From IMG/VR virus record IMGVR_UViG_3300029616_000006: 59,994 nt of DNA. One strand, given 5' to 3'. Below the pieces are notes generated by a model that did no database searches, was not told where the DNA came from, and saw only the letters and a program-made list of their open reading frames with translations. Of this stretch, positions 3,591 through 59,994 are shown piece by piece; positions within the stretch are counted from its first letter, which is position 1, and every line of letters begins with the position of its first letter. Source of the DNA: a virus. Made by a program: the position numbers and the translations under genes.

Positions 3591-3598
3591 CATATAAT
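3590..3598 (+). promoter_or_regulatory. ACATATAAT -10-like element upstream of the portal gene
   Basis: Same 9-mer also at 30956 and 59183; no clear -35. Confidence 0.35.
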
Positions 3599-3623: not shown

Positions 3624-5357
3624 ATGCCGAAAAATGGTGGTAGTTTTGGAAAGAATTCCAAACTAAATAACAATCTCGGTGGAAATCAGATAGTATATTT
3701 AAACCAAGATGAAACACAAGCAGTAAAAGATACTATAGAAACATATAACGTTAGTGCTAATAATATTGAAGTAGATAAATTAGTAAAAACAATATATGAT
3801 GAATGGAATAATAGTAAAGAACGTAAACTAATGCTTGATGGTATTTCATACTATGATAACGAAACTGAGATAAATAAGAAAGTAAGATATGACCATTGTG
3901 GTACTGATGCTAGTGTTAACGATAAGCTATCTAATGCTAAGATGCATAAGAATATTATGCGAAAATTAACAAGGCAGAAGGTCAATACTTTATTAGGTAA
4001 ACCATATAGTATTAAGACTGATGATGATAATTATAAGAAAATACTAGAGGATGAATATTTTACTAAGTATATGTATCGTAAGATATTTAATACTACTAAA
4101 GAAGCTATTAAAGAAGGTATTAACTGGTTAAATGCTTACTATGATGAGAATGGTACATTACAATTTAGAAGAGTACCAGGAAATCAGGTTAGAGTTTTTT
4201 GGGCTGATAGAGAACATACTAAAATAGCTCAATTGATTCATTATTATGAAATAGTTGTATATAAAGGTAGTGAATCTAAAACTTCTACTTATGCCGATTA
4301 TTATAGTCCTAACGGTGTAATTCATTACGTTATGGAAGATAGTGGATTTGTTAGAGATAAGGAGAGACCTGCAGAAGAAGGTAATTTTACTTTAATGGTT
4401 CCGCAAACAGAAGATATAAAGAATGATAAGGGAGAAGTAGTAGAAACTACATATAAACTGGACGAGAATGGAAATATTATATTTGAACCACAACAAATGG
4501 TTTGGGATAGAATTCCGTGGATACCTTTAAAGTATAATGAAGAGGAAACAAGTTTATTGAAATATATAAAAGAATTCCAAGATTATTATGAGAAGGTATT
4601 TAGTGCAGCAGTAGATGTAGTTATAGATATTCCAAATGCTATTAAAGTATTTAAGGGTTATTCTGGTGCCGATTTAGGAGAACTAACTAGAAATATTGCT
4701 AAGTATAGGGCAGTATTAGTAGACCCAGATGGAGATGCAAATACATTAGAAACAGATTTCAATATAGATGTATTTGATAAAGTATTAGATAGAATCCGTA
4801 AAGATGCCTACGAAGATGGTGGCGGAGTAGATATGCAATCCGATAAAACTGGAGATAAAAGTGGTGTTGGATTAAAGTTCTTATATTCAGATTTAGATTT
4901 AGATTTGGAAGAACTAGAACAAGAAATGGATGTATTCTTTGAATGGATGCTATGGTTTATTGATTACGATATTAGAATGAAGTATAATAAAGATTACGAA
5001 GATGTAGAAGTAACATTTAGCTTTAATAAAACTAATATAGTAAATGAATCAGAACTAATCAGTATGATTAACAATTCAAGGGATATGATTCCAGATAGTA
5101 TATTATTACCAAGACATCCATTCGTAGAAGATGTTACAGAGGTAGAGGAAGCTATAGAAGAACAAAGATTAGCTGAAGAAGAAGAAATGCAAAAACAAAT
5201 GGAAAACTATGGAAGTCAAGGATTTGGAAATAATATGCCAACTGCAAGTAAATTACCTAAAGTAACAAGCGTTGGTAAGGGTACAAATACCAAGACCAAT
5301 AGTAAGAAAAAGGATGAGAAGAAAGACCAGAAAGCCAAAAGCAATACCAATAGCTAG
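3624..5357 (+). CDS. Portal protein (SPP1 gp6-like)
   Basis: 577 aa, positioned between TerL and the MuF-like gene; acidic then basic C-terminal tail; AAAGGAGG SD. Confidence 0.8.
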   Translation: MPKNGGSFGKNSKLNNNLGGNQIVYLNQDETQAVKDTIETYNVSANNIEVDKLVKTIYDEWNNSKERKLMLDGISYYDNETEINKKVRYDHCGTDASVNDKLSNAKMHKNIMRKLTRQKVNTLLGKPYSIKTDDDNYKKILEDEYFTKYMYRKIFNTTKEAIKEGINWLNAYYDENGTLQFRRVPGNQVRVFWADREHTKIAQLIHYYEIVVYKGSESKTSTYADYYSPNGVIHYVMEDSGFVRDKERPAEEGNFTLMVPQTEDIKNDKGEVVETTYKLDENGNIIFEPQQMVWDRIPWIPLKYNEEETSLLKYIKEFQDYYEKVFSAAVDVVIDIPNAIKVFKGYSGADLGELTRNIAKYRAVLVDPDGDANTLETDFNIDVFDKVLDRIRKDAYEDGGGVDMQSDKTGDKSGVGLKFLYSDLDLDLEELEQEMDVFFEWMLWFIDYDIRMKYNKDYEDVEVTFSFNKTNIVNESELISMINNSRDMIPDSILLPRHPFVEDVTEVEEAIEEQRLAEEEEMQKQMENYGSQGFGNNMPTASKLPKVTSVGKGTNTKTNSKKKDEKKDQKAKSNTNS

Positions 5358-5368
5358 GAGGTAATCTT

Positions 5369-7192
5369 ATGAATATAGAAGAGATTAAGAAGGCTATTGA
5401 GAGTAATAGCAATTACTGGGAGAAGAGGGCACTAGAAAATAAATTAAGTGCTATTGAGAATGAAGAGGATTATTTAAGAAGAATATCTAGCATATATGAC
5501 CACGCTAATAAACAAATAGATGAAAAGTTAGCTAGAGTATATGCTAGGTATGCCAAAGAGAATAATCTTACTTTAGAAGAAGCATATAAGCAATTGCCAA
5601 AAAAGATGGAGACTGAGTATAAGAAGGATGTAATGGATTATGTAAATAAAGCCAAAGACCCTTCTTATAAACAGTACCTACTAAATCAAAGTATAATGCA
5701 TAAGCATTCTGTATTAGACCAATTAAGAACGGAAATGAGAGATGTTATTTACGATATTGATATGGAGGAAACTGGAGGTAAATTCTTAGAAAAGATATTT
5801 ACTGATAGTAATTACAGGGCTCAATATAGTAATAACGAAGAAGCATTCGCAAAAGTAGATAAGGAAAAGATTCAAAATCTATTAAAAGAGAATTGGTCTG
5901 GTGGCGGTAATTTTAGTGAACTTATATGGAAAGATAGAGAAAAGTTAGTTAAGGCATTGGATGATATAGTTATGAAAGGTCTTGCCACAGGAGATAACTA
6001 TGATAAGATGTCAGATAAATTAGCAAAAAGAATGGATACTAGTAAATCTAATGCTAAAAGGTTAATAATGACGGAATCGGCAAGAATGGAAAATGAAGGA
6101 TTACTATCTTATTATCAAAGAATAGGTGCTAAACAGTTAATCTTTGTTGCTACATTAGATATGAAAACATCGGAAATATGTAGGGCAATGGATGGTACCA
6201 TAATTCCAATAGAGGATGCTAAGATAGGTTTAAATGTACCTCCATTACATCCATATTGCCGAAGTGTTATTAGTCCCCATTATGAAGGTAATGAACCAGG
6301 AGATAGAGTTTATAGGGATGTAGAAACTGGAAAAACAAAGAGTGGAAGATATAGAACCTATAAAGAATATCTAGAAGAAGAGCTTGGAGATAAGGAACAA
6401 GCTGAGGCATTAGCAAGTACCAGAAATGATTTACAGACCTTAATTATGGCTGTAGATAATATAAGCAATAGTGCTAAGTACTATAATGATGGTACTGATA
6501 ATAACCAATATAAAGATGCCGTGTATAAGATACAGGAGGATGAATACAATAACATCCATTCTGTAAATGATAAATATACCGAAGAATATATGGATGAGCA
6601 ATTCGAAAAGGTTAAGGAATTAGTTAATGACAAAGCTAATGAATTAGTGATTAGGGTAAAAGAGGCTTCTATGGAAAATATTCTTAAGGATGGTGAATTC
6701 AAAAATCAATATACTACATTAACTAGTGGTGGAACTTATAATCCAGATTGGAGAAAAGTGGTTGAGAATAACTTATTTAATATACCAATAAATGCCATAT
6801 CTAGAAATAGACCGATATATGGTTATATTAGTAATAAGTTTGTTGAGAATGGCAGTAGAGGCTTTGAGTTACAGAAATATGGAAATATTAAAGTCGTATT
6901 AAAAGATTTCGTAAAAGATAGATGTTACTTTACTATGGGTGATTCTATGAATAATTCTTCTAGAATAATACCTAGTAAATTAAAGGATATACAGAGGTAT
7001 TCTATTAGACCAGAAGAATTAGCATTTAATAAATGGAAGAATCTTGGAGAGTTTAGAGGTTATCCAGAAATCCAAATATTCGGTGGTGTAAAATTAAGTG
7101 ATATTAAATATATTGAGTTACCAAAAGAATTAAAAGGTAGCGAAATTGCCAAATCCATATCGGATAATGGTATTAAGATTAGATATGAATAA
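5369..7192 (+). CDS. Head morphogenesis protein (Mu F / SPP1 gp7-like) with a long C-terminal extension
   Basis: LIMTESARMENEGLL...MKTSEICRAMDG...PPLHPYCRS matches the MuF core; about 270 further residues of unknown fold follow. Confidence 0.8.
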   Translation: MNIEEIKKAIESNSNYWEKRALENKLSAIENEEDYLRRISSIYDHANKQIDEKLARVYARYAKENNLTLEEAYKQLPKKMETEYKKDVMDYVNKAKDPSYKQYLLNQSIMHKHSVLDQLRTEMRDVIYDIDMEETGGKFLEKIFTDSNYRAQYSNNEEAFAKVDKEKIQNLLKENWSGGGNFSELIWKDREKLVKALDDIVMKGLATGDNYDKMSDKLAKRMDTSKSNAKRLIMTESARMENEGLLSYYQRIGAKQLIFVATLDMKTSEICRAMDGTIIPIEDAKIGLNVPPLHPYCRSVISPHYEGNEPGDRVYRDVETGKTKSGRYRTYKEYLEEELGDKEQAEALASTRNDLQTLIMAVDNISNSAKYYNDGTDNNQYKDAVYKIQEDEYNNIHSVNDKYTEEYMDEQFEKVKELVNDKANELVIRVKEASMENILKDGEFKNQYTTLTSGGTYNPDWRKVVENNLFNIPINAISRNRPIYGYISNKFVENGSRGFELQKYGNIKVVLKDFVKDRCYFTMGDSMNNSSRIIPSKLKDIQRYSIRPEELAFNKWKNLGEFRGYPEIQIFGGVKLSDIKYIELPKELKGSEIAKSISDNGIKIRYE

Positions 7193-7291: not shown

Positions 7292-7939
7292 ATGAAGGAT
7301 AAGTTAGTAAAATTAGGGCTTTCAGATGAATTGGCACAAAAGGTTGTAGATAACTTTGGAGACATTGTTGATGGAGTCTATGTAACCAAGGAAAGATTCA
7401 ATGAAGTTAACAAAGAGAAGAAGAACCTAGAAACCCAATTAGGAGAAAGAGATAAACAATTAGATGATTTGAAAAAGAACAATGAGTCTAATGAAAACCT
7501 AAAGAAAACTATCCAAGATTTGCAAGCGGCTAATAAAACTGCTAAAGAGGAGGCAGATAAAGCATTGGCGGCAGAACGTAAATCTAACGCCATTAAGTTA
7601 GAGTTAATGGGAAAAGTACATAATCCAGACGTAGTAATGAATATGCTAAAGATGGATGACATCATTATGGATGATAATGGTAAAGTTAAGTCAGGATTAA
7701 AAGAGGCATTAAAAACTCTAAAACAAACTGATAGCTATTTATTTATTCCAGAAGGTGGGGATAATGGTAATAACAACCAAGGTAGTGCTAATCCTTATGT
7801 TAAAGGGGCAACACCAAAAGATGGTGAAGGAGCTCCACAAACTAACTTAAGTAAAGCTGAATTATTTGCTAAGAACCTTGCAAAAGGTCATAACGAAGCA
7901 GTTAAAGCAGTTGCAGATAGTACATACTTTGGTGAATAA
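7292..7939 (+). CDS. Scaffolding protein (putative)
   Basis: 215 aa, highly charged coiled-coil, located upstream of the capsid gene. Confidence 0.55.
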   Translation: MKDKLVKLGLSDELAQKVVDNFGDIVDGVYVTKERFNEVNKEKKNLETQLGERDKQLDDLKKNNESNENLKKTIQDLQAANKTAKEEADKALAAERKSNAIKLELMGKVHNPDVVMNMLKMDDIIMDDNGKVKSGLKEALKTLKQTDSYLFIPEGGDNGNNNQGSANPYVKGATPKDGEGAPQTNLSKAELFAKNLAKGHNEAVKAVADSTYFGE

Positions 7940-30986: not shown

Positions 30987-31286
30987 ATGGATAAATTAGT
31001 CGATGTAAATTATATCGCTGACTTATGTGGAGTGAAAAGAGGTTCAATAGTTAGTTACATTAAATACTGTGCCGAAAGTGGTATTGAGATACCAAATCCA
31101 GTTCCTTATCAATCAAGTAAATATGTTTATACTATAGAAGATGCTAAAACCATTGCTGAAATGTTTAGAAATAAAAAACGTGGAGAAATGGCTGAATATA
31201 ATTACAAACATTGTTGGGGTAAGAAGATTAGGGAAAAATATCCGAGAAATTCCAAGCAGAAGTCAGCAGAGACGAGTGAAAAATAG
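30987..31286 (+). CDS. Helix-turn-helix DNA-binding protein (putative)
   Basis: VNYIADLCGVKRGSIVSYIKY HTH-like N-terminus. Confidence 0.45.
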   Translation: MDKLVDVNYIADLCGVKRGSIVSYIKYCAESGIEIPNPVPYQSSKYVYTIEDAKTIAEMFRNKKRGEMAEYNYKHCWGKKIREKYPRNSKQKSAETSEK

Positions 31287-58612: not shown

Positions 58613-58886
58613 ATTAAAAGAAGTTCCATTAGAGGAATTGGAATCCGAAGTAATTGAGGAGTTTCCAGATATTCCAGAGGAACAACCAATGCCACAAGAA
58701 CCATCAGTTGAAGAACAAATCAAAATGGCAACAGAAGAATTAGAAAGAAAGAATAATGATTTAACTCAACAAATCTATTATAAAGAACAAGAATGTAGAG
58801 AATTAAGAGCCGCAATGCAGAGTCAAGAAGAGAATTTCAATAGAGTTATTGCTGGTCTATGTATAACAATATTTGGTGGTAGATAA
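58599..58886 (+). CDS. Hypothetical acidic/coiled-coil protein
   Basis: ATG 58599 sits 9 nt after GAGGAGG. Confidence 0.5.
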   Translation: MMENKLKEVPLEELESEVIEEFPDIPEEQPMPQEPSVEEQIKMATEELERKNNDLTQQIYYKEQECRELRAAMQSQEENFNRVIAGLCITIFGGR

Positions 58887-59179
58887 TGCGAAGTAAAATA
58901 TTGTTAATAGAAAAATATAGCTTACCAATTATATTGCTAGTAACTTTAGTAATTGCGGTGTATAGTATATTTATTAGAATTGATAATAATAAACTAACAA
59001 TACAGAATTGCGAGTTAAAAGAGCAAATAAGTAAATTAGAAACAGAATTGGATAATAACAAAGAATTATTATTTGATAGAAATTATGAAATAGCTAGATT
59101 AAGAATGGAAGCGGATGAATGGAAAGAATTATTCTATGCAGAAATAGATTTCCATCCATACGAAGGTCCAGAATGGTAA
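58886..59179 (+). CDS. Membrane-anchored coiled-coil protein
   Basis: TM helix LPIILLVTLVIAVYSIFI followed by a coiled coil. Confidence 0.55.
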   Translation: MRSKILLIEKYSLPIILLVTLVIAVYSIFIRIDNNKLTIQNCELKEQISKLETELDNNKELLFDRNYEIARLRMEADEWKELFYAEIDFHPYEGPEW

Positions 59180-59182
59180 ATA

Positions 59183-59191
59183 ACATATAAT
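59183..59191 (+). promoter_or_regulatory. ACATATAAT -10-like element ahead of the ORF-free region
   Basis: Same 9-mer as at 3590 and 30956; predicted start near 59198. Confidence 0.4.
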
Positions 59192-59197
59192 ATAAAT

Positions 59198-59810
59198 ACA
59201 TTGGTTGTTAGTAGTAATGGCGCTGGATAAACGTATAGTATGCTAACGTAAAAAGGCTAAAGTAATAGGGGTACCATCCTTTCCCAATCAATATCTAAGG
59301 CATCTACCGAACGTAATCATAGCGCTAAAGGATATGGTTCGGAATAATATAGATGTAGGTGACCAAGCGGTGTACCTGGTATAACCAATGCCAAAGCAGC
59401 TGGTAGGTAGTTTACCTAGAATTAAACCGACTCTTGAGCTGGAGGACGATAGGAGAGGCAACAGTTTTGGATAGTTTAGATTAAGAACTAGATGGTCCTA
59501 ACTAGAGACAGGGGTGCTAGTTGGATTCCTATATCCGAAATAGGAGAATTGAATTGGTTTGACTTATGGAAAGACATATATGTTAGTTTGGTGGGGCATT
59601 CTACTAATATTAAAAACGCTCCAATTTATATATCTTCCGGATGCTAGGAGTAAGTAGATACAGAACTAAGTATTAGTAATAAAACTAGTTAGGTTACTAA
59701 TGGGCTAGGGAAAGTGAGTCGCCGAAAGAAGGGGCATCTATGATTACTATAGAAAATAACGTCGACAAGTATATAGTAAGAGTATCAGAGTTCAAATCTC
59801 TGTCGGAAGT
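59198..59810 (+). ncRNA. Candidate large structured ncRNA (~610 nt), class unassigned
   Basis: No ORF of 60 aa or more on either strand and no SD-led small ORF; visibly more G+C; candidate helices 59199-208/59381-390, 59391-97/59464-70, 59496-505/59517-25, 59527-32/59540-45, 59550-57/59621-28, 59672-79/59694-701. Confidence 0.5.
59634..59810 (+). ncRNA. tRNA-like module (acceptor stem + canonical T-arm) around a ~135-nt insert
   Basis: CUUCCGG (59634-40) pairs with UCGGAAG (59803-09); T-arm CAGAG-UUCAAAU-CUCUG (59786-802) has G53-T54-T55-C56-A57-A58...C61; no standard D or anticodon arm. Confidence 0.45.
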
Positions 59811-59910
59811 AAGTAACAAGTTCATTATTTTCAATACTCCTTTCTATAACTTTAAGTAGTTTTCTTATTCATAGAATCCAATTGAAAATAGTGAAAAATA
59901 ACCTTTCTTT

Positions 59911-59951
59911 GGATATTATCTAGTAGTGCTGGGATAATATCCATTTTTTTT
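59911..59951 (+). terminator. Strong Rho-independent terminator (3' part duplicated at 1..40)
   Basis: GGATATTATC / GATAATATCC perfect 10-bp stem, 12-nt loop, then A and T8. Confidence 0.85.
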
Positions 59952-59994
59952 ACCGAAATATTGCTTGTAAAATTACATGTTGTCACATGATATC
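59912..59994. repeat. Terminal redundancy, right copy (identical to 1..83)
   Basis: 83/83 nt identity with the window start. Confidence 0.95.

Follow-up and report, generated by a model that had tools for sequence, protein, structure and literature searches.

A new and modular non-coding RNA locus of the tRNA-island kind in a phage genome

The window analysed herein comprises 59,994 nt of viral DNA (IMG/VR record IMGVR_UViG_3300029616_000006), and amounts to the whole genome of a phage, assembled in circular form. Its region 59180–59994 harbours a real, new and covariation-supported locus for non-coding RNA (ncRNA), of the kind associated with tRNA islands. A previous reading of this DNA, made without database searches (the sequence-only reading), had proposed a promoter-to-terminator unit encoding an elaborately structured RNA, and this is upheld, as the unit lacks open reading frames (ORFs), carries a promoter motif and a terminator, and displays folds supported by covariation. 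The same reading envisaged one RNA of approximately 610 nt, closed by a helix between its 5′ end and its middle. That part is not supported: the locus is modular rather than one monolithic ornate RNA, with its leader (M1), core and tRNA-like cloverleaf (TLS) occurring independently of each other in relatives.

The stretch is non-coding. Its ORF-free gap of 815 nt (59180–59994) is, as had been stated, the only long one in the window, the next largest being 214 and 205 nt (+ strand ORFs of at least 60 aa). Within 59181–59912, the longest stop-free run in any of the six frames is 69 codons, which is below that of all 590 windows of the same size (732 nt) in the rest of the genome (minimum 75), and no long frame opens in this region upon reassignment of any single stop codon. 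Substitutions are spread evenly over the three codon phases in comparisons with related contigs (37/36/36 for L004, 25/27/24 for L094 and 75/77/77 for L097). Alternative genetic codes and small ORFs were both rejected following the stop-reassignment and codon-phase tests. The impression that the region is richer in G+C than its flanks was also borne out, with 59201–59740 reaching 39.4 % G+C, a value that no 540-nt window exceeds (mean 31.7 %, standard deviation 2.4).

Relatives were gathered as eleven IMG/VR contigs of the same phage group via the large terminase, with further contigs added via a 97-aa protein encoded just upstream of the locus (49 relatives in public assemblies). The sequence-only reading had noted that ordinary protein genes at this position in relatives would speak against the RNA; instead, wherever no contig end cuts the locus, all of those compared display a homologue of the 97-aa gene and then 640–1500 nt without ORFs, either at once or, as in L102, beyond one small extra ORF.

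Comparison of these loci reveals three separate folds, the first of which is the leader.

59199–59290, + strand: M1 leader, approximately 92 nt, three-way junction (covariation, 17 sequences)
59201–04/59284–87, + strand: M1 P1, conserved closing helix
59206–12/59242–48, + strand: M1 P2
59220–22/59232–34, + strand: M1 P2a
59253–56/59278–81, + strand: M1 P3
59268–69/59274–75, + strand: M1 P3a

In the 17 distinct M1 sequences, the 20 pairs are formed in 97.4 % of cells, compared with 41–52 % when partners are slid, and the covariation score was reached in 0 of 500 shuffles. Six pairs are changed on both sides, and one position varies between C-G, U-A and A-U. On the + strand, several of the conserved pairs are U-G or G-U, which would become A-C on the other, hence it is the + strand that is under selection. 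A covariance model of M1 finds exactly one copy per genome, and is confined to this phage group. The 10-bp helix previously drawn as closing the RNA (59199–208/59381–90) pairs in one subgroup only, and competes with the conserved 59201–04/59284–87.

The second fold is considerably larger, with at least nine helices.

59295–59632, + strand: core RNA, approximately 340 nt, at least nine helices (covariation, 10 sequences)
59300–06/59350–56, enclosing 59307–12/59337–42, + strand: long 5′ hairpin of the core
59357–64/59369–77, + strand: core helix
59391–97/59464–70, + strand: core helix closing the central multi-branch domain
59410–14/59423–27, + strand: core helix
59428–33/59442–48, + strand: core helix
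59472–77/59485–90, + strand: core helix
59500–05/59517–22, + strand: core helix
59527–32/59540–45, + strand: core helix
59561–59582, + strand: invariant-loop hairpin GACU-UAUG-GAAAGA-CAUA-UAUG, inside the core, with a covarying stem
59565–68/59575–78, + strand: core hairpin
59593–97/59618–22, + strand: terminal hairpin of the core

Its layout is that of a long 5′ hairpin, a central multi-branch domain, three hairpins and the invariant-loop (GAAAGA) hairpin, with long invariant single-stranded runs between the helices (UAGGUGA, CGGUGUACCUG, GAAGCAG, AGGACGWUAG and AGAUUUAAGAAC). Across 10 sequences and 54 pairs, pairing stands at 94.2 % vs 30–41 % with slid partners; 24 pairs are changed on both sides, and none of 500 shuffles reached the covariation score. 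The stem of the GAAAGA hairpin, for example, is UAUG/CAUA in the window, GUUG/CAAC in L098 and L102, and GUGGG/CCCAC in L100. Four helices that had been drawn from the single sequence (59301–12/59337–55, 59391–97/59464–70, 59496–505/59517–25 and 59527–32/59540–45) are all backed by covariation. The pseudoknot suggested alongside them is not, as its arm 59276–82/59327–33 is not conserved. A palindrome, ACATATATGT (59574–83), is indeed present in the window, but is broken in L097, L003, L063, L098 and L100, so that the dimerisation proposed to occur through it has no support from the family.

The third fold has the outline of a tRNA.

59634–59809, + strand: tRNA-like cloverleaf (TLS), 176 nt (covariation, 8 sequences)
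59634–40 (CUUCCGG)/59803–09 (UCGGAAG), + strand: 7-bp acceptor-like stem of the TLS
59639–45/59733–39, + strand: helix closing a large arm (approximately 95 nt) at the D-arm position
59744–51/59772–79, + strand: long arm (44 nt) at the anticodon position
59786–59802, + strand: T-arm CAGAG-UUCAAAU-CUCUG, abutting the 3′ acceptor strand

For the TLS, 29 pairs in eight sequences are 96.9 % paired (42–48 % slid), 12 of them are changed on both sides, and 0 of 500 shuffles attained its covariation score. As in a tRNA, a 7-bp acceptor stem abuts a 5-bp T stem with a 7-nt T loop, and both stems covary. The module has neither the 4-bp D arm nor the 5-bp anticodon stem with 7-nt loop of a tRNA, is longer than the usual length of approximately 72–95 nt, possesses no anticodon loop and no encoded CCA, and is called neither by ARAGORN nor by the Rfam tRNA model (E ≤ 10). 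A helix noted previously at 59672–79/59694–701 exists, but lies within an insertion that is seen in the closest relatives only. Between the window and L001, the TLS is 95.5 % identical, though L001 is without a core and the flanks are 90 % identical or unalignable, which suggests that this module has been exchanged between phages. Thus, the alignments deliver the compensatory substitutions that the sequence-only reading had looked to as a check, with 6, 24 and 12 doubly changed pairs in M1, core and TLS, respectively.

With regard to the arrangement of these folds, the locus is a mosaic. The first approximately 92 nt after the promoter (M1) and the last approximately 100 nt (two C/U-rich boxes plus terminator) are common to nearly all relatives, whilst the middle differs. 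The same three parts are found in the window, L004, L092, L094 and L104, and diverged copies of the core in L097, L100, L003, L063, L098 and L102. M1 is joined directly to the TLS, with no core, in L101, whilst in L103 the promoter is joined directly to the core, with no M1. L006-8 carry M1 with a different cargo, and L098 and L102 have other modules between M1 and core. These inserts include a canonical tRNA-Trp(CCA), at 65 bits, and tRNA-like elements with aberrant D or anticodon regions, at 30–43 bits. Arrays that reach up to 1500 nt, and combine several families of non-canonical tRNA-like elements with a single canonical tRNA-Trp(CCA), occur at L102 2690–4200, L098 2480–3460 and L063 8430–8540. 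Amongst their elements are minihelices (acceptor stem plus T-arm, approximately 55 nt), a form with a long extended anticodon arm ending in ACCA, and matches to the tRNA model with a 19-nt insertion in the D-loop. The link to tRNA-like elements anticipated by the sequence-only reading is therefore sound, resting on the TLS in the window and on tRNA-model matches at the locus in relatives. It is likewise via the relatives that this phage-encoded locus lies near tRNA genes, as GOLLD and ROOL do, the window itself having no canonical tRNA.

The modules are bracketed by the following elements.

59182–59191, + strand: −10-like element AACATATAAT (motif enriched, recurring before late genes, conserved in relatives)
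59810–59910, + strand: conserved trailer with two C/U-rich boxes, CUCCUUUCUA (59837–46) and AACCUUUC (59900–07)
59911–59951, + strand: intrinsic terminator, with AU8 after a stem of 10 bp (up to 14 pairs if extended)

The element AACATATAAT is without a −35, and the transcription start is predicted at approximately 59198, 2–3 nt before the first M1 helix. A 10-mer, AACATATWAT, occurs nine times in place of the 2.4 expected (nine reached in 0 of 100 shuffles), and on the + strand precedes the portal gene (3589) and the gene at 30987; the earlier observation of one −10 variant at both genes is hence correct, and the motif is over-represented. The shorter motif CATATAAT is also present before the genes at 7292, 11988, 17763 and 36690. 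Its copies at 3591, 7198, 11954, 17670, 30957, 36562 and 59184 are mostly without a −35 and located just upstream of genes, and its recurrence ahead of late genes, that for the portal included, points to a promoter class that is phage-specific.

At the opposite end, eight of nine locus variants retain the first trailer box and all nine the second, whatever the cargo. The first, CUCCUUUCUA, has the same sequence as the 3′ tail of Bacillus-type 16S rRNA (the anti-Shine–Dalgarno region); it is also complementary to a conserved AGGAGUA at 59646–59652 in the TLS. The terminator had been recognised previously as a 10-bp stem followed by T8, and both stem and U-run are present: GGATATTATC (59911–59920) pairs with GATAATATCC (59933–59942), followed by A and T8, which makes for a G+C-containing hairpin with an immediate U run. 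Relatives keep a hairpin and U-run at this site, their stem sequences differing yet staying complementary, so that it is the structure that is conserved. A scan tool missed this terminator because its loop limit is 8 nt.

As bases 1–82 are identical to 59913–59994 (an 82-nt overlap from circular assembly), the unit lies directly upstream of ORF 167–616 and the large terminase gene (822–2282), and its supposed position at the genome end is an assembly artefact rather than a physical end. It is situated between the last early/middle gene (58886–59179) and the packaging genes. All real-looking genes of at least 100 aa are on the + strand, and include those for structure and packaging (large terminase, portal, head-morphogenesis and major head proteins) and a full replication set (family A DNA polymerase, DnaB-like helicase, primase, clamp, clamp loader, RecA and SNF2 helicase). 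The large terminase is only 43–47 % identical to those of the nearest GenBank phages, amongst which the named examples have Bacillus and Streptococcus as hosts. Two direct copies of a 25-nt repeat, GTAAAATTACATGTTGTCACATGAT, occur at 56–80 (= 59967–59991) and 107–131, between the RNA terminator and the late promoter, and could be a regulator-binding or packaging-related site.

No known family accounts for the locus. At the Rfam 15 gathering score, the whole window has no match to ROOL, GOLLD, OLE, tRNA, tmRNA, RNase P, introns or riboswitches, and at E ≤ 10 the 995-nt query 59000–59994 yielded nothing relevant, with two chance-level matches to small terminator-like RNAs. ARAGORN found neither tRNA nor tmRNA in the window, and BLASTN of the region found no match in 50,697 GenBank phages. 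DNA-pattern scans for M1, core and TLS in IMG/VR, metagenomes and GTDB genomes located the modules only in this phage group; pattern matches outside of it, once examined, proved to be chance ones in coding DNA. Based on these combined negatives, the modules are new families by sequence and fold. Of the two outcomes that the sequence-only reading had left open, membership of the ROOL/GOLLD class or a new one, the former falls, both curated covariance models being unmatched even at E ≤ 10, and the latter stands, with no curated family matching: the class is new, whilst the kind, phage RNAs associated with tRNA islands, is known.

Other assignments were tried and rejected. The window is unmatched by the OLE model (RF01071), by those for group I and group II introns, RNase P RNA and riboswitches, and a tmRNA is recognised by neither ARAGORN nor Rfam. 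Likenesses to group I intron elements, the P4 region of RNase P, the 11-nt tetraloop receptor, a T-box sequence and the L11-binding region of 23S rRNA are without Rfam support.

The GAAAGA hairpin of the core does have copies elsewhere. Its 18-mer is found at 49 IMG/VR loci, approximately 32 of which lie in an unrelated phage RNA family of approximately 600 nt (L020–L066; e.g. L022 at about 5190–5720, − strand; L024; L031; L034). This family has a TTGACA/TATAAT promoter and no ORF, is unannotated and is absent from Rfam 15. Its members reside just downstream of large tRNA arrays, followed in the contigs examined by a gene of approximately 470 aa with DUF2828 and DUF7788 (vWA-like). All that they share with the window RNA is the hairpin GACUUAUG-GAAAGA-CAUAUAUG, and homology to the core was rejected, as a model of 59462–59583 recovers only this 22-nt hairpin at 16–26 bits, vs 131 for the window. 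The idea that DUF2828 is Ro60-like, making these RNAs Y RNAs, was also dropped: the PDB contains no relative of it by sequence, and such a protein is not encoded in the window; no literature on the DUF2828 protein was found. In L022 and L025 this gene is split into ORFs of 163 and 356 aa, approximately 770 nt apart, where others have one ORF of approximately 470 aa, and the split may reflect an intron or an inserted element. A further contig with a chance copy of the 18-mer, L062, matches the permuted tmRNA family at 1344–1570 (59.7 bits).

A separate observation concerns OLE. Positions 1–119 of L009 (= L084 13095–13213, − strand; IMGVR_UViG_3300045988_050254) match the 3′ end of the OLE model (positions 497–616; 57 bits, E approximately 1e-13). 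This is a phage of the same group, with a large terminase 74 % identical, and a terminator directly follows its OLE-like sequence, which runs off the contig end and has no counterpart in the window; the sister phages L122–L125 have a 133-aa gene there. No report of OLE in phages was found in the literature.

Our favoured explanation, to which we assign a probability of approximately 60 %, is that of an independently transcribed ncRNA operon, comprising a string of autonomous folding units, that is processed by tRNA enzymes and expressed late. In a virulent-type phage of approximately 60 kb, whose host is probably Gram-positive and low in G+C, a phage promoter of the late-gene class would start transcription at around 59198, and the intrinsic terminator would stop it at 59951. 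The resulting primary transcript of approximately 750 nt would contain the 92-nt leader M1, the multi-helix core of approximately 340 nt and a 176-nt tRNA-shaped module, the latter with a 7-bp acceptor stem, canonical T-arm, and hypertrophied D and anticodon arms. As a 7-bp acceptor stem and T-arm are determinants for RNase P and the 3′ tRNA-processing enzymes, the transcript would be expected to be cut into leader, core and mimic. Recognition of the tRNA-like module by these enzymes, and by the CCA-adding enzyme, would yield separate stable RNAs that may act in trans, late in infection, with the core perhaps binding a partner through its invariant loops (the GGAAAGAC hairpin, AGGACGWUAG and CGGUGUACCUG). 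One leader/trailer frame holding varying cassettes, true tRNAs and anticodon-less tRNA mimics would be this lineage's equivalent of a tRNA island. For the locus we infer that it is transcribed, when this happens, how the product is processed and that it acts in trans; that it is non-coding, with its promoter-to-terminator frame, a selected + strand and three independent folds, is shown by the observations above.

Several points weigh against this explanation. The sets compared are of only 8–17 sequences, which are related to each other, and the shuffle counts should not be read as probabilities; despite these small and related sets, the slid-partner control and the counts of doubly changed pairs are clear. 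The folding energy of the single sequence is unremarkable (z = −1.0 for the + strand and −1.9 for the − strand), and the evidence for structure is comparative. The TLS has C1-G72, encodes no CCA and lacks a recognisable D stem, so that its recognition by tRNA enzymes is not assured, and a scan of 29 window proteins (PHROGs or Pfam) found none that binds or processes RNA. Finally, a possible pairing of 8–10 bp in the window's subgroup (59199–59206/59383–59390) could keep leader and core joined within a single molecule.

This last point leads to the main rival, to which we give roughly the weight of an outside chance: one large ornate RNA, similar to GOLLD or ROOL, with M1 as a 5′ domain, core and TLS as a 3′ domain, and a tRNA-accommodating linker, perhaps forming homo-oligomers. 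GOLLD and ROOL are phage/prophage RNAs near tRNA islands, and GOLLD is described as combining a conserved 3′ region with a 5′ region that is less so, its linker at times containing tRNAs (PMC12286853). The overall size of approximately 610–750 nt would suit such an RNA, as would the M1–core pairing and the tRNAs of relatives, which are inserted exactly between M1 and core. However, that pairing is absent in L003, L063, L098 and L102, the palindrome that might mediate dimerisation is not conserved, and the Rfam models of GOLLD and ROOL are unmatched. Moreover, L101 dispenses with the core and L103 with M1, the remainder being intact in each.

Somewhat more doubtful again is an undescribed phage-ncRNA cassette system, in which a fixed M1 and trailer would bracket exchangeable cargo, and the mimics and core would decoy or hijack the tRNA-binding machinery of the host. 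If true, this cargo would comprise a new ornate RNA class of approximately 340 nt, several families of anticodon-less mimics, true tRNAs and, in one phage, an OLE-like domain. Possible targets would then be tRNA-targeting defence nucleases, RNase P, the CCA-adding enzyme or the ribosome, the last of which is hinted at by the trailer box CUCCUUUCUA, with its resemblance to the 16S rRNA tail. A widespread family of marine-phage RNAs has the GAAAGA hairpin as well, and this hairpin would in turn be a docking site for a common host factor.

It appears improbable that the locus is a cis-acting leader of the late operon, in which M1 would modify RNA polymerase, as does the put RNA of HK022, and lead to read-through of both structured region and terminator, into the terminase genes. 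M1 is the first transcribed and most conserved part, just upstream of the late genes, and the promoter is of a class found before such genes. Yet both the strong, conserved terminator at 59911–59951 and, downstream of it, a separate sigma-70-type promoter (TTGATT-17-TATAAT) stand before ORF 167–616, which is the next gene, whilst a cis-regulatory leader would have neither between itself and the gene controlled. In addition, the distance and genes between the unit and the large terminase vary freely amongst relatives, L103 has no M1, and no curated antitermination RNA in Rfam resembles it.

There is very little to recommend the view that these are decaying tRNA genes or an element acting as DNA (a packaging site, replication origin or recombination hotspot), with no function as RNA. 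The locus does adjoin the terminase genes, with direct repeats just downstream, its content is mosaic and often exchanged, and some of the tRNA-like elements look degenerate. Against this, more than 94 % pairing is kept by compensatory changes over 103 pairs in three modules, the G-U asymmetry indicates RNA of the + strand, and long invariant loops persist between phages whose neighbouring gene product is only approximately 51–62 % identical. Small proteins are the least likely of all: whilst candidate ORFs exist (e.g. 51 aa, + strand, 59492–59647, or 45 aa, − strand, 59697–59834, the latter after the Shine–Dalgarno-like GAAAGGAG), the − strand ORF is shortened to 16 codons in L094 and 2 in L097, the genome's genes of at least 60 aa are all on the + strand, and substitutions lack codon periodicity.

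Amongst known systems, phage tRNA islands may encode stable RNAs other than tRNAs, as exemplified by the species 1 and 2 RNAs of the T4 tRNA operon. The favoured ncRNA operon would resemble this in having one promoter, a string of tRNA-shaped and other small structured RNAs, and maturation by host tRNA enzymes, the last being a prediction here. It differs in that the window has no decoding tRNA, the core is far larger, and a conserved leader and trailer frame the array. Processing handles resembling tRNAs at 3′ ends are familiar from MALAT1-mascRNA and from the tRNA-miRNA units of murid herpesvirus 68, where, as in the window, a tRNA-shaped element lies downstream of or between other ncRNAs; these are, however, eukaryotic or from a eukaryotic virus, and have ends defined by tRNA enzymes, which are only putative here.

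Similarity also extends to tRNA mimics such as the YrlA Y RNAs of bacteria and phages and the tRNA-like domain of tmRNA, which likewise combine an acceptor-like stem and canonical T-arm with extensions foreign to tRNA. YrlA with a 7-bp acceptor stem is cleaved by RNase P and has CCA added to it (PMC4201824). Unlike in YrlA, the acceptor stem of the TLS is formed by the 5′ and 3′ ends, and no Ro60/TROVE gene occurs amongst the 29 window proteins scanned. Viruses in IMG/VR have previously yielded 10,006 candidate structured RNAs (csRNAs), including tRNA-like candidates and some upstream of a putative large terminase gene (PMC10690425); these share both data source and kind of evidence with the present modules, the comparison with M1, core and TLS being by description only.

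The closest parallels are GOLLD and ROOL. Like the locus described herein, GOLLD is phage-borne, large, multi-helix, non-coding and tRNA-island-associated, and joins a conserved domain to a variable region able to hold tRNAs; its expression rises in phage-induced lysis (PMC12286853), which compares with the late-gene-type promoter here. Differences lie in the unmatched Rfam model and in the parts of the window, which are smaller (92 + 340 + 176 nt) and mutually independent. ROOL, at approximately 600 nt, is also of phage origin, near tRNA islands and without an associated protein gene (PMC12286853), all of which hold for the window unit as well, but again its Rfam model is unmatched, and ROOL is a single fold where the window unit is modular. 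Large structured phage RNAs near tRNA islands, such as these two, are amongst the best-known RNAs without a function, and the locus adds an unrelated example, with three covariation-supported folds new to Rfam and a hairpin that recurs in an unannotated family of phage RNAs, itself much larger. As its natural variants act as deletion and insertion mutants, it becomes testable whether such a locus is a single machine or a processed array, and whether its link to tRNAs is one of processing or of mimicry. These variants already show leader, core and tRNA mimic folding and persisting alone.

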